Below the pieces are notes generated by a model. It had not been told where the DNA came from, made no database searches, and saw nothing but the letters and a program-made list of their open reading frames with translations. A stretch of DNA of 64,000 nucleotides from Candidatus Fervidifonticultor sextus. GTDB taxonomy: Bacteria; Sysuimicrobiota; Sysuimicrobiia; Sysuimicrobiales; Humicultoraceae. Every line of letters starts with the position of its first letter. Position 1 is the stretch's first letter. Shown here piece after piece: positions 1,919 to 34,350 of the stretch. The stretch covers positions 66,609-130,608 of the forward strand of contig JAVKHQ010000004.1 of assembly GCA_031459875.1 (NCBI GenBank), given 5' to 3'. The position numbers and the translations under genes are program-made.

Positions 1919-2012
1919 GCTGCCTGCGGCGATGCCTCCGGCCCGGGCTTCACGGGCGCTCGCCCGGGCTCACAGGCCCGGCCACCGTGCACTTCCCCGC
2001 GGATCCGTTGTT

Positions 2013-2026
2013 CGAACATCCGTTCG
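2013..2026. promoter_or_regulatory. Putative LexA (SOS) box
   Basis: Intergenic CGAAC-ATCC-GTTCG, a perfect Firmicutes/Actinobacteria-type CGAAC-N4-GTTCG palindrome. Confidence 0.65.
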
Positions 2027-2191
2027 TATATCGGAGGGCCGGTTCCCAGGTTCCGTAGTGTAGGCAGGGCGCGGGTCCCTCTCTGCGCAACTTCTCCGGG
2101 CCGGGTGTGGAGGAAGCCAATCGGATACTGGGGAACATTCCTGGCTATTGGACGTCCCTGACGATGCTGCGGCAGAGATAATCGGGCCTCA

Positions 2192-3217
2192 ATGACACTG
2201 CTGATCCGCGAAGCCGACGTCGCCGCACTGCTGACCATGGACGACGTGCTCGCGGCGGTGGAAGCAGGATTCCGCGCGCTCGGCGAGGGAGCAGCGGTCA
2301 ACCAGCCGCGCACCCGATCGGCGACCGCGGCGGGTGTGCTCCACGTCATGCACGCCGCGGCGCCATCGGTTGGGGTGATGGGCGTGAAGGCCTACGCCAC
2401 GACGCCGCGCGGGTCGCGGTTCCTCGCCATCCTCTACCGCCTGGAAGACGGCGAGGCGGCAGCCATCGTGGAAGCCGACCTCCTGGGCCAATTGCGCACC
2501 GGCGCGGCCAGCGGGGTGGCCACGAAGTACCTGGCCCGCGACGACGCGGGCGCGCTGGGCGTGATCGGCGCGGGCTTCCAGGCGCGCAGTCAGGTCCGGG
2601 CGATCTGCCGCGTCCGGCCCATCGCGCTCGTCAAGGTCTACAGCCGCTCCCCGCAGCGCCGGGAAGCCTTCGCCGCCGAGATGGTCGCCGAACTGGGCAT
2701 GGAGGTGGTCGCGACGGCCAGCGCCGAGGAGGCGGTCGAGGGCACGGACATCGTCGTGACCGCCACATCATCGCGCGATCCGGTGTTGCAGGGAGCGTGG
2801 CTTCGACCCGGGATGCACGTCAACGCCATCGGGTCCAACGCGGCGTGGCGGCAGGAGCTGGACACCGAAGCGGTCCGCCGCGCCGATGTGATCGCCGTCG
2901 ATGCCCTCGACCAGGCCCGCGTGGAGTGCGGCGACCTCATCGCGCCGGCGGAGGCGGGCCAGGCGGTCTGGGACCGGGTGATCGAACTGGGCGCCCTCGT
3001 CGCCGGACGCCACCCGGGTCGCACGGACCGGCGCCAGATCACCCTCTTCGAGTCGCAGGGCATCGCGCTCGAAGATGTGATGACGATGGAGGTGCTGCTC
3101 CGCCGGGCCCTGGCCGCCGGTGTCGGCCACGAGGTGCCACTGTCGCCGGGGGGCGGCCGTATCCGCCGGGACCCGCAGGGTGGCCCCGGGAGGCCGGGAG
3201 GGAAGACGACGTCGTGA
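2192..3217 (+). CDS. Ornithine cyclodeaminase/mu-crystallin family protein
   Basis: LRTGAASGVATKYLA, GVIGAGFQA, PGMHVNAIGSN, ITLFESQGIALED. Confidence 0.92.
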   Translation: MTLLIREADVAALLTMDDVLAAVEAGFRALGEGAAVNQPRTRSATAAGVLHVMHAAAPSVGVMGVKAYATTPRGSRFLAILYRLEDGEAAAIVEADLLGQLRTGAASGVATKYLARDDAGALGVIGAGFQARSQVRAICRVRPIALVKVYSRSPQRREAFAAEMVAELGMEVVATASAEEAVEGTDIVVTATSSRDPVLQGAWLRPGMHVNAIGSNAAWRQELDTEAVRRADVIAVDALDQARVECGDLIAPAEAGQAVWDRVIELGALVAGRHPGRTDRRQITLFESQGIALEDVMTMEVLLRRALAAGVGHEVPLSPGGGRIRRDPQGGPGRPGGKTTS

Positions 3218-3233
3218 CCGAGGAGGACAGGCA

Positions 3234-4721
3234 GTGACCGTCCGCGTGACCGTCGCCGACCCGCTCACGCACCGCTGTGATGTGCTGGCGCTGGGCGTCT
3301 TCTCGGCGCCCGGCCGGCTCGAGGGGATCGCCGCCAAGGTGGACCAGGCGTTGGGCGGCATGCTGGCCCGCGCGCTCCACGAAGAGCGGTTCACCGGTGA
3401 ACTGGCCCAGGTGTTCCTCCTCCACACGCATGCCCGCCTGCCGGCCGGACGGATCGGCGTCGTGGGACTGGGCGGGCGGGATCAGTTCACCCTGGAACGA
3501 CTGCGCCTCGCCGCAGCGGCGGTCGCGCGGGCGGCCCAGGACCGCCGGCTGACACGGCTGGCCTACCCCCCGCTGCAGCACCGGGACTGGGAGCCCGCAG
3601 CCATCGCGGCCGCGCGGACCGAAGGCGCATTGCTGGGCACCTACCAGTTCACGAAGTACCGCAAGGACAAGGGCACCCAGGTGGACATCGACCTGCTGGC
3701 CGCGAACCGGGCGGAGTCGGCGGCGGTCGAGATCGGCCGGCGCCGCGGACAGGTCACGGCCGACGCCGTCAACTACGCGCGCGACCTGGTGAACGAGCCC
3801 GCCAACGTCCTGACCCCGGAGGCCCTGGCCGCGGAGGCGCGCCGCATCACCCGGGGCACCAAGCTCAAGGTCCAGGTGTGGGGCCCCCAGGACCTCAAGA
3901 AGCGGGGCATGGAGGTCATCCTGGCGGTCGGCGGCGCCAGCGCCCACACGCCGCGCATGATCCTCCTGGACTACGCCCCGTCCAAGCCCCGGCGTGCCGT
4001 GGCGCTGGCCGGCAAGGGCGTCACCTTCGACACCGGCGGGGTGAACATCAAGTCCTTCGAGGGGATGTCCACCATGAAGACCGACATGGCCGGGGCCGCG
4101 GCGGTGCTGGCCACCATGCGCGCGCTGCCGCTGCTGCAGCCGCCGGTGCGGGTGACCGCCGCCATCGTCGCGGTCGAGAATGCGCTCGGCAGCCGCGCCA
4201 TGCGCCCCGGCGATATCCTCACCGCGGTGAACGGCACGACCATCGAGATCACCAACACCGACGCCGAGGGCCGGCTGATCCTGGCCGAGACCGTCGCCCA
4301 CCTGGCCGCCGGCAAGCCCGACGAGATGATCGACGTGGCGACCCTGACCGGCGCCGCGTCCATTGCCCTGGGCCCCTACGCGGCCGCGATCATGGGCAGC
4401 GACCAGGGGCTCGTGGACCGGCTGGTGGCCGCCGGCGGCCGGGCGGGCGAACGCCTGGTGGCGCTGCCACTGTACGAGGAATACCGGCAGGCGATGCGCA
4501 GCGAGACCGCCGACATCAAGAACTCGGGCACCCGGCCGGGCGGAGCCCAGAAGGGCGCCATCTTCATCCGGGAGTTCACCGGCGGCGTGCCCTGGGCGCA
4601 CCTCGACATCGCGCCCGTAGCCTACTTCGAGCGCGAGGAGGGCACGAGCCCGCTGCAGCCCAGGGGCGCCTCGGGATACGGCGTGCGGACGCTGCTGGAA
4701 TACCTGACGGCGCGGAGTTAG
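3234..4721 (+). CDS. pepA: Leucyl aminopeptidase (M17)
   Basis: GKGVTFDTGG, MKTDMAGAA, NTDAEGRL, DVATLTGA, WAHLDIA. GTG start after GAGGAGG. Confidence 0.95.
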   Translation: MTVRVTVADPLTHRCDVLALGVFSAPGRLEGIAAKVDQALGGMLARALHEERFTGELAQVFLLHTHARLPAGRIGVVGLGGRDQFTLERLRLAAAAVARAAQDRRLTRLAYPPLQHRDWEPAAIAAARTEGALLGTYQFTKYRKDKGTQVDIDLLAANRAESAAVEIGRRRGQVTADAVNYARDLVNEPANVLTPEALAAEARRITRGTKLKVQVWGPQDLKKRGMEVILAVGGASAHTPRMILLDYAPSKPRRAVALAGKGVTFDTGGVNIKSFEGMSTMKTDMAGAAAVLATMRALPLLQPPVRVTAAIVAVENALGSRAMRPGDILTAVNGTTIEITNTDAEGRLILAETVAHLAAGKPDEMIDVATLTGAASIALGPYAAAIMGSDQGLVDRLVAAGGRAGERLVALPLYEEYRQAMRSETADIKNSGTRPGGAQKGAIFIREFTGGVPWAHLDIAPVAYFEREEGTSPLQPRGASGYGVRTLLEYLTARS

Positions 4722-6106
4722 ACGGTCTTCAACTCCTGCAGGATGCGCACCAGCGCCTCCCGTCCGTCGGCGAAGAACATCCGCGTCTTGTCCATGTAGA
4801 ACAGGTCGTTGTCCACGCCGGCGAAGCCGGGGGCCAGGCTGCGTTTGATCACGATGACGTGCTTGGCCCGATCCACATCCAGGATCGGCATGCCGTAGAG
4901 CGGGCTGGAGCGGTCGGAACGCGCTGCGGGGTTGACCACGTCGTTGGCCCCCAGCACCAGCGCCACGTCCGCATCGGGGAACTCGCCGTTGATGACCTCC
5001 ATGTCCACGAGTTTGTCGTAGGGGATGTCGGCTTCGGCCAGCAGCACGTTCATGTGCCCTGGCATCCGGCCGGCCACGGGGTGGATGGCGAATTTCACGG
5101 AGACCCCGCGGGCTTCCAGCGCCTTCATCAGTTCGCGGACCTCGTTCTGCGCCCGCGAGACGGCCAGGCCGTAGCCGGGCGCGATGATCACGTTGCGCGC
5201 GTAGGCCAGCAGCGTCGCCGCCTCGTCGGCCTGGATGGACTGCGCGGTCCTGCCCGCTGCCGCACCCGTGGCCTGCACGGTGGCGCCGAAGGCCCCGAAA
5301 AGGACGTTGGCCACCGACCGGTTCATCGCCCAGCACATGATCCGGGTCAGCAGCACGCCCGACGACCCCACCAGGGCGCCGCTCACGATGAGGACGTGGT
5401 TGTGCAGCACGAAGCCGGCCCCGGCAGCCGCCAGGCCCGAAAAGGCGTTGAGCAACGCGATCATCACCGGCATGTCCGCGCCGCCCACCGGCAGCACGAA
5501 GAGCACTCCGAGGGCCAGCGAGAGGGCCAGTACCACATAGAAGGGTGCCATCACGGGGCCTGAGACGGTGGCCTGCAGGATCAGGTAGACCGCCAGACCC
5601 GCTGCCGCCAGGAAGACCGCCGCGTTGCCCGCCTGCTGGAACCGGTAGATGATGGGACGGCCGGAGACGAGCTCCTGGAGCTTGGCGAAGGCCATCACCG
5701 AGCCTGAGAGGGTGGCGGCGCCCACCAGGGTGGTGAACATGATGCTGATGGGCACGTCCAGCGCGACCCGCCCCGGGGTCAGGACCCAGAACTCCGCCCA
5801 GGCGACCAGCATCGAGGCGCCGCCGCCGACCCCGTTGAACAGCGCCACCATCTGCGGCATCGCGGTCATCGCCGCCTTTCGCGCGGCCACCGCCCCGATG
5901 GTCGACCCGAGCAGCATCCCCGGGATGATGTACTCGAAGCGGGCAATCCCCTGGTGGAACAGGGTGGCCACGATGGCGATGGCCATGCCCAGGGCGCCGA
6001 CCAGGTTCCCGGTGCGGGCGGTCCTGGGTGAACTCAACCACTTGAGGGCGATGATGAAGGTGACGCCGGCCAGCAGGTACGCCAGTTCGATGAAGATGAT
6101 CGTCAT
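4718..6106 (-). CDS. pntB: NAD(P) transhydrogenase subunit beta
   Basis: MPQMVALFNGVGG, GGADMPV, HPVAGRMPGHMNVLLAEA, GANDVVNPAA. Confidence 0.97.
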   Translation of the reverse strand: MTIIFIELAYLLAGVTFIIALKWLSSPRTARTGNLVGALGMAIAIVATLFHQGIARFEYIIPGMLLGSTIGAVAARKAAMTAMPQMVALFNGVGGGASMLVAWAEFWVLTPGRVALDVPISIMFTTLVGAATLSGSVMAFAKLQELVSGRPIIYRFQQAGNAAVFLAAAGLAVYLILQATVSGPVMAPFYVVLALSLALGVLFVLPVGGADMPVMIALLNAFSGLAAAGAGFVLHNHVLIVSGALVGSSGVLLTRIMCWAMNRSVANVLFGAFGATVQATGAAAGRTAQSIQADEAATLLAYARNVIIAPGYGLAVSRAQNEVRELMKALEARGVSVKFAIHPVAGRMPGHMNVLLAEADIPYDKLVDMEVINGEFPDADVALVLGANDVVNPAARSDRSSPLYGMPILDVDRAKHVIVIKRSLAPGFAGVDNDLFYMDKTRMFFADGREALVRILQELKTV

Positions 6107-29391: not shown

Positions 29392-30294
29392 ATGAGGGCC
29401 GCCCCGGACACCGCCAGCGCCGTGGGGCTGCTGGCGGTGGCGGCCGCGGCCTTCCTGTGGGCCACCCTGGGCGTGGCAGGCAGGGCGCTCTATGCTGCAG
29501 GGGCCGAGCCGCTGGTCGTGGTGGCCTGGCGGGCCATCCTGGCCGTCCTGGTCCTGGGGGCCGGGCTGGCGATCCTGGGGCCCGGGCTCCCGCGCCTCCC
29601 GCCGCGCGAACTCCCGTTCTTCGCCCTCTACGGCCTGGTCGCCGCGTCCAACTATGCGTGTTACTTCCTGGCGTTACGCCATGTCCCCGTCGCCGTGGCG
29701 ATCATTCTGCTGTACACCTACCCCGCGTTTGTCGCGGTGGCGGCCCGCTTCCTCTTTGCGGAACCGCTCAGCCCGGCCAAGACGCTGGCCCTGGGCCTGT
29801 CCTTCGCCGGCGTGGTGCTGGTCGGCGGCGGGCTCTACGTCGGGACGGCGCGCCTCAGCCTCCCGGGCGTGGTCTACGGGCTGGGGGCCGCAGTCACGAT
29901 GGCCGCCTACAGCCTGCTGGGGAAGCGCGCCACGCGACACCACGATCCGTGGACGGTGACCCTGTTCTCGCTGGCGTTTGCAGCGCTCTCGCTCGCCGCC
30001 GCCCTGGGCCCGCGGCTGGCGCGCGCATTCGCGTATACGCCGCCGATGTGGGCAGGGTTGGTCTACCTGGCGGTCGGCCCGACGCTGCTGGCCTACGGCC
30101 TGTTCCTGTGGGCGCTGGGGCGCGTCGAGGTGAGCCGGGCCAGCGTCTGGACCACGCTGGAACCCCCCATGGCCGCCGCGCTGGCGTTCCTGTGCCTGGG
30201 CGAAGTCCCAAGCGCCGTGCAGGTGGTGGGCGGGGTGCTGGTCCTGGCCGGCGTCGGGGTCCTCCAGTGGCGGCCGGCTACTCCAGCAGCGTGA
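29392..30294 (+). CDS. EamA/DMT family transporter
   Basis: About 10 TM segments in two repeats; LLYTYP, LEP...LGE. Confidence 0.92.
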   Translation: MRAAPDTASAVGLLAVAAAAFLWATLGVAGRALYAAGAEPLVVVAWRAILAVLVLGAGLAILGPGLPRLPPRELPFFALYGLVAASNYACYFLALRHVPVAVAIILLYTYPAFVAVAARFLFAEPLSPAKTLALGLSFAGVVLVGGGLYVGTARLSLPGVVYGLGAAVTMAAYSLLGKRATRHHDPWTVTLFSLAFAALSLAAALGPRLARAFAYTPPMWAGLVYLAVGPTLLAYGLFLWALGRVEVSRASVWTTLEPPMAAALAFLCLGEVPSAVQVVGGVLVLAGVGVLQWRPATPAA

Positions 30295-30307
30295 CAGGGC
30301 CCCGACC

Positions 30308-30832
30308 CTAGCGGACCACCGGCGGGCGCGACGCCACAGCGCGCGGCATGAAGACGCCGATGATGCGTACGGTGATCCCCCGATCTCCCGGACCCACCTC
30401 GACGCTGAGGCCGCGGCCGTCCCACCGCAGCTCGATGCCCTGCCCGCTGGTGTAGAGCCCGAACGTCCGCAGGAAGTCCAGCAGCGGCTGGCCGACGGCA
30501 TGGCCGCCCGTGTCGGTGATGAACCGGGTGTCGTCGGTGATGATGAAGGCCACCGTGCCGGCACCCTCCAGGCCGAGGCGCTGGACGCGGTCGAAGGCGC
30601 AGATCCCGACGCCGCGCTCCGGGTTGCACATCCCGTGGAGCGCGGGGGTGTCCACGGACTCGACCGGGCCGTACTGCTCCATAAGCGTCTTCGCGCGCTC
30701 CAGCGGCATCCCGATCTCAAACGGCCCGATGGCCCTGCCGGGGACGATCATCGTCGACGACTGGGCCGCGACGGAGGATCCGAGGGCGGCGACGAGCGCC
30801 AGGGCCACCGTGACGGTCGCATGATGATGCAT
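30308..30832 (-). CDS. Hypothetical secreted protein
   Basis: Signal peptide ending VAA-Q; IVPGRAIGPFEIGM; one Cys pair; SD AAGGAG. Confidence 0.8.
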   Translation of the reverse strand: MHHHATVTVALALVAALGSSVAAQSSTMIVPGRAIGPFEIGMPLERAKTLMEQYGPVESVDTPALHGMCNPERGVGICAFDRVQRLGLEGAGTVAFIITDDTRFITDTGGHAVGQPLLDFLRTFGLYTSGQGIELRWDGRGLSVEVGPGDRGITVRIIGVFMPRAVASRPPVVR

Positions 30833-30871
30833 GGCCTTCGCTCCTTCCCCGAGGCGCGCCCCTGGCCCCTC

Positions 30872-31540
30872 TCACCCCTGGGACGGCCGTGCCGCCTCGT
30901 CTGACGGTCTGCCCACGAGCGTGCGAAACTCCTCGTACTCCTTGGCCAGCATGTCGGCGGTGCGTTGGGCGAAGGCGTCGGTCCTGCCCACCATGTTGCA
31001 CGTGCGGAGCATGTTGACCGTGAGTTCGAGGATCGAGTTGGCGGGTCCTTCGATGACCACCTGCTCCCCGTTGTACTTGTCGATCAGCACCTTTACCAGC
31101 AGGCGCTCGTTGAGCAGGTCGTAGCGGATTTCCCGCGTGATCAGGCTCCAGTCATCGGGCAGTTCGTTCCACCGGGTGTAGGCCTGCGCCAGTTCCGCCC
31201 CGTACATCCCCAGGATGGCCCGCAGGAAGGCCGCCACGCGGGGCGAGGCCGTGGCCTCCACCTGGGCGATGCGGTTGACCTGGTCGGTCCGCGTCACCCA
31301 CGCCACGAGGTAGGCGGGATCCTGACCGAGGTAGCTGGACAGGGCGGTGTGGACTTCGCCCAGGGTCTTCACGCCGACCCCCGTCCCCAGGCGCCTGCCG
31401 ATGACCGCCAGGACCTCCGAGTCCGCCTGCGGCCGGGCCTGCAGGAACGCATCGAGCACCCCGGCGGCCTCCGCGATCAGCGGTCCCGGATCCGACACCT
31501 GCCCGGCCAAGAGGGATGACCAGTCGGCCATGTCCTTCAC
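30872..31540 (-). CDS. Hypothetical protein (helical N-domain plus short beta/alpha C-domain)
   Basis: 222-aa ORF coupled by a GTGA overlap to the upstream gene; alternative ATG at 31531. Confidence 0.85.
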   Translation of the reverse strand: MKDMADWSSLLAGQVSDPGPLIAEAAGVLDAFLQARPQADSEVLAVIGRRLGTGVGVKTLGEVHTALSSYLGQDPAYLVAWVTRTDQVNRIAQVEATASPRVAAFLRAILGMYGAELAQAYTRWNELPDDWSLITREIRYDLLNERLLVKVLIDKYNGEQVVIEGPANSILELTVNMLRTCNMVGRTDAFAQRTADMLAKEYEEFRTLVGRPSDEAARPSQG

Positions 31541-32628
31541 GCTCCCTTCCCCGCGGTCCTCTCGGTCCGCGCCGACACCTGAGGCCAGATCTTGGCGGGG
31601 ACATCTCCGGCGCGTTCGGTGAACCGCTGCCGGGCGTGCCGCGCCTTCTCGATCTGCCCAAAGATCTGGTTGATCACATCCCGCAGCTCTCCCAGGGTCT
31701 TGTCGGCCTTGGGGGGACAGAGCGTCCCTATCTCGTCGAGCGCATTGCGGATGTCGGCCAGGTGCCGGGCCAGCGCCTCGGCCATCTCGTCGGGTGCGCC
31801 TTTCGGGGGGCCGCTCATGGCCGCGCGCACGACGCTCCGCGCGTCCCTGACCGCGCTGTCCAGGCTCCCCACCGGTTCCCGGAAGTCGTCCTCATCGCCC
31901 TTGAACGCCGGGCCGAGCCCCGTCACCATCCCCCGCATCTCGTTGACGAATCTCCGCACACGCTCCCAGTCGGTGGGCCTCAGCCCCCTGGCCCGGGCTT
32001 CTTCGAATGCCGTGCGGGCCTCGTCACACCGGGCCGACAACGCCTGGCAACTGATGTAGCCCTGGATGTAGTCCCCCAGCCGCTCCTGATGGGCCTGGAG
32101 CTGGCCCAGGAGCAGCGGGCTGACCGCCACCACGGCGGGTTCCTCCAGTTCCGCCTCGACGGCTTCCCGTCCGGTCTGGGCCCTCGGGGCCCACGCCGCG
32201 TCGGGGGCATCCCGCTCCTCCCTGCGGCTCTCGGAGTGCACGTCGGCCGCGCGCGCCGCCTGCACGTCCTGGAGGATCCTGTCCAACGCCTCGGCCTCCG
32301 GCCTGCCGTCGAAGTCGCGGCGGAGCCGCTCCAGGGCGGGGGTGAGTTCCACGGCGCAGTACGTGGCCACGGCCTCGATGGTCTCGTAGTGGACATTATA
32401 CTGATCCGCCAGGGTGGGGTTGGCTCCGGTCCGGTCGCGGGACTTGAGTGCGTCGAGGGCCGTCAGCGCAGTCCTGAGGGCCGTCAGTTTCCCGTGGACG
32501 GTCTCCTGCACCTCGGTCACCCTCTCGGTCAGCGGCGGCTGGTCCGGCGCCAGCCTCTGCAGGGCCTGGGCGATCCTGGTCAGCAGGGCCCGATTCTGCC
32601 TAGCCTCCGCAAGATAGTCTGACGCCAT
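31537..32628 (-). CDS. Hypothetical all-helical protein
   Basis: 363-aa ORF with heptad-like amphipathic helices. The N-terminal ~105 aa are similar to the upstream gene product. Confidence 0.85.
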   Translation of the reverse strand: MASDYLAEARQNRALLTRIAQALQRLAPDQPPLTERVTEVQETVHGKLTALRTALTALDALKSRDRTGANPTLADQYNVHYETIEAVATYCAVELTPALERLRRDFDGRPEAEALDRILQDVQAARAADVHSESRREERDAPDAAWAPRAQTGREAVEAELEEPAVVAVSPLLLGQLQAHQERLGDYIQGYISCQALSARCDEARTAFEEARARGLRPTDWERVRRFVNEMRGMVTGLGPAFKGDEDDFREPVGSLDSAVRDARSVVRAAMSGPPKGAPDEMAEALARHLADIRNALDEIGTLCPPKADKTLGELRDVINQIFGQIEKARHARQRFTERAGDVPAKIWPQVSARTERTAGKGA

Positions 32629-32650
32629 CTCGGCCTGCCTCTGTCCCGCG

Positions 32651-33184
32651 CTACGGTACCGGGATCCCGATCAGGAGTCCCAGGGCCTTCACCAGCGCAT
32701 AGGCCCTGGTCGCGACCTGCACGGCCTTCGCCCCCTGCTCCACCAGATGCTCTGCGGTCTCTACCACCCGTTGGACGGTCCACCGATCGCCCGAGGGTGG
32801 CGGAGGCAGCGCGCTCGTGTCCAGCGTGGCGGGGGGATGGGTCCTGGCCTGTTCGACTACCTGACTCGTCAGCCGATCCAGCGCGGGAACGATCTCGGTC
32901 TCGAAGACGACCTTCGACGCTTCGATGTTTCCGATCAGGACATACCGCCTGGTGGCCAGGGTGGGGTCGGTTTTGAAGACATCGGCCCGGTCGACCTCCG
33001 CCAGGTTCTCCAGGTTCGTCCGAAACCGCTCGAGCACATCAGCCACCCTGGCGCGCAGGTCACTGACGTCAGACGCGTACACTCTATTGAGTCTGTCGCT
33101 GGCCAGGAGCGTGTCCAGTTGTACCAGGGTCTTGAGGATCTGATCCGCTTCCTTCCGCGAGGCCTGCTGGTAATCCTGGGGCAT
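32651..33184 (-). CDS. Hypothetical helical protein with hydrophobic C-terminal tail
   Basis: MPQDYQQ... start after GGGAGG; ends ALVKALGLLIGIPVP. Confidence 0.85.
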   Translation of the reverse strand: MPQDYQQASRKEADQILKTLVQLDTLLASDRLNRVYASDVSDLRARVADVLERFRTNLENLAEVDRADVFKTDPTLATRRYVLIGNIEASKVVFETEIVPALDRLTSQVVEQARTHPPATLDTSALPPPPSGDRWTVQRVVETAEHLVEQGAKAVQVATRAYALVKALGLLIGIPVP

Positions 33185-33290
33185 GGCGCACCCTCCCGGG
33201 AGGTCTCCATCGGTGAACTCACTCTCGCACTGGCAGCCACGCGGAATGCAGGCCCAGGCGCGCGGGGTGCGAAAAGCCTGCAGATCAGAC

Positions 33291-33369
33291 TGGCGGGAGC
33301 GACGGGATTTGAACCCGCGATCTCCTGCGTGACAGGCAGGTGTGTTGAACCAGGCTACACCACGCCCCC
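33291..33369 (-). tRNA. tRNA-Asp (GTC)
   Basis: Acceptor GGGGGCG/CGCTCCC; anticodon arm CCTGC-CTGTCAC-GCAGG; GGTTCAAATCC; GCCA end. -10 TACAAT upstream. Confidence 0.97.
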
Positions 33370-33474
33370 GCGAGGGCGACTCCCGCCAGCAGTCATTGTA
33401 CCGCCCGCGACCTACCGGGGCAATGACCGGCGCAGGCCCACGTCCGCCGGCGGGCCGAGGCGGCGACGGGGGCC

Positions 33475-34350
33475 TCATGGTTCCACGCTGACCGTGACGG
33501 TTGCGGTCTTCCCGCTGTAGGCCGGGCTCTCGATGTGGATCTCCAGCGTGTCGGCCTGCAGCAGCCGGATCATCCCCTCGGGGGTCACCTCGTAGGAGGC
33601 GCCCCCGGCGGCCACGACGATCCGGGACGGCTGGCCGCGGTCGCCGCGACGCAGGAAGAGGTGCTGTCCGACCCGGGCGCGGAACGCCCGCCCCCCGACC
33701 ACCCACGGTCCGCGGACGCCATCGACGAAGTACTCGATGGTCACCGTCCCGGCCGGCAGCGGCGGCGTGTACTGGCTGGCGAGGTCCTCGGCCTGCCACC
33801 CCGCCTGGCTCCAGCGGTAGATGCGGTCGATGTCGCTGCGGGTCTCCAGCAGGCCCTCAGGGATGAAGCGGATCCGACCGGCCGGCAGGCCGTGGTTCTC
33901 GGCGGTGACCTGGACCTGGCGGCGGCGCTGCTGGACCACGATGTAGCCGAGGAATCCGGCGCTGCCCCCGCGCGTGGCGAACACGGCCGCCACCGGCGCG
34001 TCATCGGACGGCCGCCCGGTCTGGATTGGCTCCCAGGTCTCGCCGGCGAGCCGGCGCTGGAACAGCCGCTCCAGGCGGCTGCCCGGACCGACCCCGAAGA
34101 CGAAGGCGGTCGGGGCCCGATCGCGTCCCGTCTGCGCCGCCGAGGCGGGCACGGTCGCGGCGACCAGGACCTCGTCGCGGCCGTCCCCGGTCAGGTCCGC
34201 ATAGGCGATCTCGTTGATCGCCGTCCCTGGCGGCAGCAGGGGGAGGACCTGGGCGGCCGTGGGCATCTCGCCGCGCTCCTGAGGCCGGCAGCCAGCGAGC
34301 CCCACGGCGGCCACCGCGCAGCAGCAGACCAGGACGACCCGGGTGGACAC
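33475..34350 (-). CDS. Hypothetical lipoprotein
   Basis: Lipobox LAGC; DLTGDGRDE FG-GAP-like motif; SD AAGGAG before GTG. Confidence 0.82.
   Translation of the reverse strand: MSTRVVLVCCCAVAAVGLAGCRPQERGEMPTAAQVLPLLPPGTAINEIAYADLTGDGRDEVLVAATVPASAAQTGRDRAPTAFVFGVGPGSRLERLFQRRLAGETWEPIQTGRPSDDAPVAAVFATRGGSAGFLGYIVVQQRRRQVQVTAENHGLPAGRIRFIPEGLLETRSDIDRIYRWSQAGWQAEDLASQYTPPLPAGTVTIEYFVDGVRGPWVVGGRAFRARVGQHLFLRRGDRGQPSRIVVAAGGASYEVTPEGMIRLLQADTLEIHIESPAYSGKTATVTVSVEP

Follow-up and report, generated by a model that had tools for sequence, protein, structure and literature searches.

A COMMD-like protein behind genes with a shared helical domain: a three-gene cassette next to tRNA-Asp in Candidatus Fervidifonticultor sextus

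Introduction

What kind of system is encoded by three closely linked genes behind a tRNA-Asp, and do their products belong together? The question is raised by a stretch of 64,000 nucleotides from the bacterium Candidatus Fervidifonticultor sextus (contig JAVKHQ010000004.1, positions 66,609 to 130,608), which is called the window below and in which the cassette of genes 1, 2 and 3 lies on the minus strand. An earlier note, made from the sequence alone, described an uncharacterised operon with two paralogous helical proteins, possibly a membrane-active defence effector, pore former or scaffold at an integration hotspot. We compared the three genes with genomes, metagenomes, family libraries and structure collections. 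It turned out that gene 3 almost certainly encodes a prokaryotic COMMD-like protein, that genes 1 and 2 share a helical N-terminal domain, and that the three genes very probably act together.

Results

Gene 3 is a COMMD-like protein

The assignment of gene 3 was decided by sequence kinship. The profile search with gene 3 collected 340 representatives at E<=0.001, and one cluster of these relatives (P0210) contains UniProt A0A1M5BE07 from Desulfacinum infernum, with which gene 3 shares 34% identity over its full length (222 aa, E 3e-48). Liu et al. (Nat Commun 2026, PMC13392464) give A0A1M5BE07 in one row among their bacterial proteins, and it is on this kinship to a published member that the COMMD-like assignment of gene 3 mainly rests.

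The AlphaFold2 model of gene 3 was built from 9 sequences (mean predicted local distance difference test, pLDDT, 72.5) and consists of seven helices, three strands and two further helices. The seven helices (7-11, 19-35, 39-51, 59-71, 73-82, 87-97 and 100-124; pLDDT mostly 75-93) form the predicted HN domain, and the predicted COMM domain follows with three strands (131-141, 146-155, 160-166) and a helix (168-183), for which the pLDDT is only 52-74. The COMM domain is opened by a near-invariant tryptophan, Trp131, present in 141 of 142 aligned rows. When the model was searched with Foldseek, all 13 listed rows to rank 20 were human COMMD proteins, the bacterial COMMD-like structures 9q6a/9q6c or Chlamydia Cpn0803/CT584 (E 3.6e-4 to 0.052, template modelling score about 0.3), and the same set took the top 5 places among 48,161 chains in the VIA wide search (Z 9.2-5.9, root mean square deviation (rmsd) 9-12, 133-161 residues aligned). 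Taken alone, these structural scores for a predicted model are modest, and the rmsd is high. The matches had been missed in the earlier note, and since the fold family of gene 3 is already in print, the system is not as wholly undescribed as was claimed there.

The best structural match of gene 3 was Chlamydia CT584/Cpn0803 (PDB 3q9d, 4mlk; Foldseek E 3.6e-4; VIA Z 9.2, rmsd 8.8, 133 aligned), but the identity is 11-14%, the profile match to CT584 has an E of 0.13, and the sequence kinship points to the COMMD-like set. According to the accessible part of the paper cited above, CT584/Cpn0803 are Chlamydiales-only hexamers built via the HN domain, while prokaryotic COMMD-like proteins form homo-rings of 8-10 subunits from obligate COMM dimers, with no predicted partner and of unknown function (PMC13392464); gene contexts are given in that part for Myxococcota, Chlamydia and haloarchaea only. 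Gene 3 has the two-domain architecture (HN and COMM) reported for these proteins (9q6a/9q6c) and differs in its extra C-terminal helix and in its fixed place behind a dedicated helical-domain gene, which is described below. By family membership, gene 3 may be predicted to assemble into dimers and rings as well.

The family libraries gave a different kind of result. In Pfam, NCBIfam, PADLOC and PHROGs, nothing over the cut-off was found for the three window proteins, in line with the expectation that they match no housekeeping family. Pfam searched against 142 gene 3 relatives gave no match better than E 0.0035, and the Pfam COMM_domain model had no match in the genome of the window (G000). Searches of PDB sequences with the gene 3 and shared-domain profiles returned weak or coiled-coil matches only, and there was no gene 3 match in Atlas.

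Two COMMD-like relatives have additional parts. In P0040 (319 aa) the N-terminal helical domain is duplicated (internal score 134; 0 of 2000 shuffles), and P0143 (345 aa) carries a C-terminal extension of about 140 aa with a weak HTH_23 match (E 0.022), which looks winged-helix-like by eye.

Genes 1 and 2 share an N-terminal domain

The N-termini of genes 1 and 2 (about 105 residues) are aligned by BLASTP with 33% identity over 66 aa (E 3e-5) and by profile-profile comparison with a probability of 98.5% (E 3.8e-15, 103 columns), and the shared-domain score was reached by none of 2000 block shuffles. The shared domain is therefore more than chance, and the earlier claim of such a domain, including the motifs quoted for it, proved right. 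In the AlphaFold2 model of gene 1 (pLDDT 89.5; predicted template modelling score, pTM, 0.84), the shared domain is formed by the helices 2-28, 41-67 and 74-115, after which come a linker rich in proline and a hairpin of two helices.

The homologues of gene 1 fall into 21 clusters. In all 21, the best 19-residue Kyte-Doolittle mean of the tail is 1.34-1.56, and the last helix carries two conserved lysines. The hydrophobic tail that had been noticed at the end of gene 1 is thus present but only marginally hydrophobic, and from its sequence it would be an amphipathic hairpin and not a clear membrane anchor. Neither the shared domain nor gene 1 matched an enzyme family in the scans of Pfam and the other libraries, and the fold search with the gene 1 model gave no match at E<=0.001 in PDB or BFVD. 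The best VIA match of gene 1 was to designed three-helix bundles (Z 10.3), a generic helical likeness that is not specific; the likeness to NINJ2 (Z 9.8, rmsd 5.4) and to a plant NLR N-terminal domain (Z 8.2) stays within this generic range and was not used. CCDC22 and CCDC93 were not among the VIA matches listed for gene 1. Besides, Atlas returned three unnamed clusters of about 186 aa for gene 1 at 0.88-0.89, which serve as leads only.

The C-terminal domain of gene 2 (about 165-335) is helical-looking from the sequence and matches no family. As a possible repeat of the shared domain it was rejected, because 125-283 of 2000 shuffles reached the score and no repeat was detectable. When gene 2 (1-128) was modelled as a complex with a pair of gene 3 chains (4-212), the score was 0.00 in two runs; the controls did not fold, and the prediction speaks neither for nor against binding. 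We regard gene 1 as the candidate effector and gene 2 as the candidate adaptor of the cassette.

The genes stay together at different chromosomal sites

Out of a family of 340 gene 3 representatives, neighbourhoods were read for six loci with a strong gene 3 match (the window, L003, L010, L011, L013 and L014), and in all six a shared-domain gene lies directly upstream of gene 3. L010 and L011 were located via gene 3 alone, L013 and L014 via gene 1 alone, and the six loci represent about three lineages from two phyla by source labels. None of 150 gene 3 representatives contains the shared domain in the same chain.

Within the phylum, strong gene 3 matches were found in 4 of 94 genomes (G000, G002, G077 and G078), and gene 1 was found in 3 of 94. 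The shared domain occurs in the same four genomes as the strong gene 3 match, a result in which only the 90 blank genomes are informative because the profile used (A4) was built from those loci. A fifth, weak match in G046 (E 2.8e-4, 45 positions) was left out of the gene 3 counts. G002 (locus L003) contains the full cassette at the same tRNA. In G077, a 125-aa protein that consists of the shared domain only stands directly before gene 3, and there is no gene 1. G078 has a frameshifted gene 1, a 125-aa protein, a 246-aa protein beginning with the shared domain, and then gene 3. In this last locus (L011, 8422-10215), gene 1 is split near residue 100 and the 246-aa protein has a low-complexity tail; it is possibly a decaying or an expanded cassette, or an assembly error.

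The metagenome scan with gene 1 added 5 loci (L012-L016). In L013 and L014, all three genes stand in the same order before lepA and without the tRNA, and their cluster members are labelled Chloroflexota. Full-length gene 2 orthologues are present in L003, L013 and L014, and the genes do co-occur elsewhere. Generally, a second shared-domain gene follows directly after gene 1 (7 of 8 gene 1 loci); the eighth locus, L012, ends about 200 nt on, and L015 is cut and weak (E 0.003-0.007). Gene 3 and the shared-domain genes remain neighbours at three unrelated chromosomal sites, although their proteins are only 25-37% identical between loci.

It is against this pattern that hitch-hiking has to be judged, by which gene 3 and genes 1-2 would be separate modules that have travelled together since one old transfer and do not act together. 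Only three lineages are sampled, L016 has genes of the 1-2 type without gene 3, and the gene 3 family looks far larger than that of gene 1 (340 against 21, by different methods), all of which would suit such a history. The adjacency at 25-37% identity and at three sites speaks against it, however, and so does G077, where the domain gene and gene 3 are retained after the loss of gene 1; we consider hitch-hiking quite improbable.

The neighbourhoods bear on a further explanation, in which gene 3 would be a secretion-associated chaperone or accessory protein with genes 1-2 as its cargo, an idea put forward for Myxococcota, where COMMD-like genes occur close to genes of the injection machinery. 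No secretion-system gene was recognised by eye in the lists of open reading frames (ORFs) of the window (24-42 kb), L003, L010, L011, L013, L014 and L016, and this explanation is highly improbable. No relatives were found in viral contigs, plasmids or phages.

The shared domain is fused to an nSTAND1-TPR protein in L016

In L016, the gene 1 orthologue is followed directly by a gene (1997-5776) for a 1259-aa protein, in which the shared domain comes first, at about 16-130 (E 5.6e-14; 0 of 2000 shuffles). It is followed by a region of about 260 aa (residues 141-398) for which no match was found, by an nSTAND1 domain that passes the Pfam threshold (E 1.3e-9), and by TPRs. The link to STAND proteins comes from this one locus.

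Conflict systems coupled by effector-associated domains (EADs) have this layout, in which neighbouring genes carry the same small domain and one of the copies belongs to an NTPase, as far as they are set out in the accessible part of Kaur et al. (eLife 2020, PMC7159879). Like an EAD, the shared domain is small, non-enzymatic, mostly helical and carried by two adjacent genes in 7 of 8 gene 1 loci. A fusion to a STAND NTPase with TPRs occurs in L016 and is absent from the window and from the remaining loci with a COMMD-like gene. There are also clear differences from the systems described there: Pfam EAD models were absent among the matches at E<=0.1 for the 21 gene 1 homologues and the other domain carriers, no enzymatic effector was identified in the cassette, and the core of the window is a COMMD-like protein that lacks the shared domain. 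Besides, adjacent copies of the shared domain are not each other's closest relatives. The N-terminal domains of genes 1 and 2 score 74 against each other, but 111 and 107 against the L016 copy, and that of gene 2 scores 107 against the G077 copy. By analogy, the shared domain may work like an EAD, but we do not file it as one.

The same loci could be explained by a toxin-antitoxin-like addiction module. Gene 1 would then be the toxin, the paralogous domain on gene 2 or on the STAND protein would keep it inactive, and the COMMD-like ring would be the regulator. Such a module would account for the second domain copy behind gene 1 in 7 of 8 loci, and for its persistence with gene 3 in G077 and G078, where gene 1 is not intact, given that a toxin can be lost but its antidote not first. 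However, there is no match to known modules, the putative toxin comes first in the operon, and there are no mobility genes to stabilise. We regard addiction as distinctly unlikely, although it and a defence role are not mutually exclusive.

The cassette is an accessory insert, and gene 1 has diverged alone

Among five congeners, the tRNA-Asp site holds the cassette in G002, is empty in G001 and G004, and holds other DNA in G003 and G005. Since the site is empty in two congeners, the cassette is accessory, an insert at a variable tRNA site. For G077 the flanks lie on different contigs in all five congeners compared. The tRNA is adjacent in only 2 of 6 gene 3 loci, so that of the integration hotspot proposed earlier the accessory insert stands, but the link to the tRNA is local. 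No att-like duplication of the tRNA 3' end was seen among the 20 largest repeat families shown and no integrase was recognised in the window ORF list; site-specific integration is therefore unsupported. The GC content at third codon positions is 0.81, 0.89 and 0.91 for genes 1-3, against 0.90-0.96 for 8 nearby genes, so that only gene 1 stands out; in L013 and L016 it is below that of the flanking genes.

When G000 is compared with G002, gene 1 and its spacer (window 32651-33290 against L003 9410-10121) show 72-79% DNA identity, against 89-98% in every other 150-nt bin between 27.6 and 35.5 kb. The number of synonymous substitutions per synonymous site (dS) is 0.69 for gene 1 and 0.08-0.17 for its neighbours. 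A third homologue, P0165, has 80% and 77% identity to the G000 and G002 copies of gene 1, which share 73%. In addition, contigs of the runs X3 and X4 skip 32810-33283 as expected of the G002-like form, and X3 also carries the window form (one study). Because the divergence is confined to gene 1 and the spacer, gene 1 appears to have been replaced by recombination in one lineage, in a recent exchange between the sister species. Gene replacement of this kind is common for conflict genes and is no proof of a conflict role.

Two of the congeners hold other DNA at this site. In G003 (L050, about 700-1370), about 670 nt without a long ORF follow the tRNA-Asp, and a short translated stretch in it presumably resembles the start of a tyrosine recombinase. 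In G005 (L049, 963-2863) there are two genes, which we take to encode a D-2-hydroxyacid dehydrogenase and an RpiR-type regulator.

Layout and transcription of the locus

The features of the locus are given in Table 1. The arrangement described in the earlier note is right in its coordinates: 22 nt separate genes 1 and 2, and genes 2 and 3 overlap (GTGA) if gene 3 starts at GTG. An alternative start, ATG at 31531 (MADW), is used at that position by 6 of the 8 closest homologues, and judged from these the true start of gene 3 may lie 9 nt later, in which case there is no overlap.

Table 1. Coordinates of the cassette and of the features beside it in the window
Feature	Position	Strand	Remarks
tRNA-Asp(GTC)	33369-33291	-	ARAGORN; ends in CCA; outside the cassette; its 3' flank is the variable site
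Spacer, 106 nt	33185..33290	-	Ribosome-binding-like GGGAGG before gene 1; the G002 counterpart is longer and different
Gene 1, 177 aa	33184-32651	-	ATG at 33184; shared three-helix domain about 2-115, proline-rich linker, two-helix hairpin ending GIPxP
Gene 2, 363 aa	32628-31537	-	Shared domain about 1-125, acidic linker, C-terminal domain about 165-335
Gene 3, 219-222 aa	31540-30872	-	Predicted HN domain about 7-124, COMM domain about 128-185, extra C-terminal helix 187-210
174-aa gene, hydrophobic N-terminus	30308..30832	-	39 nt behind gene 3; resident tRNA neighbour, outside the cassette

A simple scan found no terminator-like site on the minus strand in 30200-33600, which agrees with the earlier remark that no U-tract terminator stands between the tRNA and gene 1, and one promoter-like site was found upstream of tRNA-Asp (9 of 12 matches; 0.2 expected). 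Judged from these signals, transcriptional read-through from tRNA-Asp into gene 1 is therefore possible. Compared with the sister genome G002, the ratio of nonsynonymous to synonymous substitution rates (dN/dS) is 0.25 for gene 1, 0.48 for gene 2 and 0.24 for gene 3, which means purifying selection, and the three genes are therefore real coding genes. The window DNA is present in four hot-spring metagenome runs, all from one study, and no RNA dataset containing it was listed. Close homologues carry the source label Armatimonadota.

With matches in 28 of the 34 family genomes, the 174-aa gene is a resident neighbour of the tRNA; in G001, G004 and G014 it stands close behind tRNA-Asp. Its protein has no family match and 4 matches within G000, and it occurs near various tRNAs (Asp, Gly/Tyr, Pro) in several genera. 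On the other side of the tRNA, at 33475-34350, a 291-aa lipoprotein-like protein with weak FG-GAP matches (E about 0.02) is encoded, which is conserved in the congeners.

Discussion

We tentatively propose that the cassette is an adaptor-coupled conflict module, serving in defence or cell suicide. Since the shared domain stands on adjacent genes and is once fused to a STAND NTPase, which is the EAD coupling pattern, it is proposed as a docking adaptor. As family membership suggests, gene 3 would dimerise via its COMM domain and build a ring of 8-10 subunits. The shared domain of gene 2 would then dock on this ring and become clustered, a step suggested by the invariable adjacency of the two genes, and the clustered domains could recruit gene 1 by like-with-like contacts, as the EAD pattern implies. 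In the last and weakest step, the C-terminal hairpin of gene 1 would be released and act on the membrane or another target. In the L016 variant, the nSTAND1-TPR protein, as a sensor with its own shared domain, might provide the clustering platform in place of genes 2 and 3. While the complete chain stays tentative, a conflict role as such is somewhat favoured, and membrane action of gene 1 is doubtful. Taken furthest, the COMMD ring and the NLR-like STAND oligomer might be interchangeable clustering devices for one new three-helix adaptor domain that activates gene 1, a small executioner acting on membranes, in an undescribed immune or cell-death pathway; in this full form the proposal is somewhat unlikely.

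Several observations weigh against the conflict module. Gene 1 is absent in G077 and frameshifted in G078, so either the proposed effector is dispensable or the cassette is in decay there. Every locus read is flanked by genes of housekeeping type, and PADLOC 2.0 assigned 0 families to 10 proteins. Only L016 joins the shared domain to a STAND protein, it has no COMMD-like gene in its 7.8 kb of sequence, and both adjacent copies in the window resemble the L016 copy more than they resemble each other, contrary to the EAD rule. The tail of gene 1 is below the usual transmembrane hydrophobicity, and in the model the entire chain forms a single, confidently folded unit (pTM 0.84). Moreover, the neighbourhoods read cover only a few of the 340 gene 3 relatives. 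The defence role named in the earlier note gains one real clue from the nSTAND1-TPR protein that bears this domain. No defence island was found around any locus read, and a membrane anchor or pore is unsupported.

The housekeeping flanks, together with a three-gene order conserved across two phyla, would suit a non-defence scaffold, in which the COMMD-like ring would organise a cytoplasmic or membrane-associated structure through the binding of two helical paralogues, by analogy with the eukaryotic CCC complex (COMMD1-10 with CCDC22/CCDC93; PDB 8f2r, 8p0w). The COMMD fold is common to both, a ring combined with two paralogous helical proteins, predicted for the cassette, is an analogy, and eukaryotic HN domains bind CCDC22/CCDC93 according to the accessible part of a preprint (10.64898/2026.02.02.703414). 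Unlike the CCC complex, the cassette has one COMMD-like gene, and similarity of genes 1-2 to CCDC22/93 was not found; as far as the accessible part of Liu et al. (PMC13392464) reports, there is no prokaryotic CCDC22/93. The patchy presence (4 of 94 genomes), the partial loss in G077 and G078, the allele exchange of gene 1 and the STAND fusion fit conflict better, and we regard the scaffold as unlikely.

Both the COMMD-like family and the principle of coupling by adaptors have been described before. For the shared domain, the cassette or their link, we found no published account in the literature covered, which excludes subscription papers, and the supplementary gene-context figures of PMC13392464 might show the neighbourhood. 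Even if the conflict module proves false, the locus still adds a new subfamily to the COMMD-like proteins, along with a helical domain that has no name yet. Within 2.3 kb, the cassette supplies specific candidates for partners; its smallest form has two genes (G077), and the shared domain connects it to an NLR-like ATPase. If the platforms are interchangeable, this would give prokaryotic COMMD rings their first function and first partners. If the conflict role is true, a ring resembling the ancestor of that in the eukaryotic Commander complex would serve immunity in bacteria.

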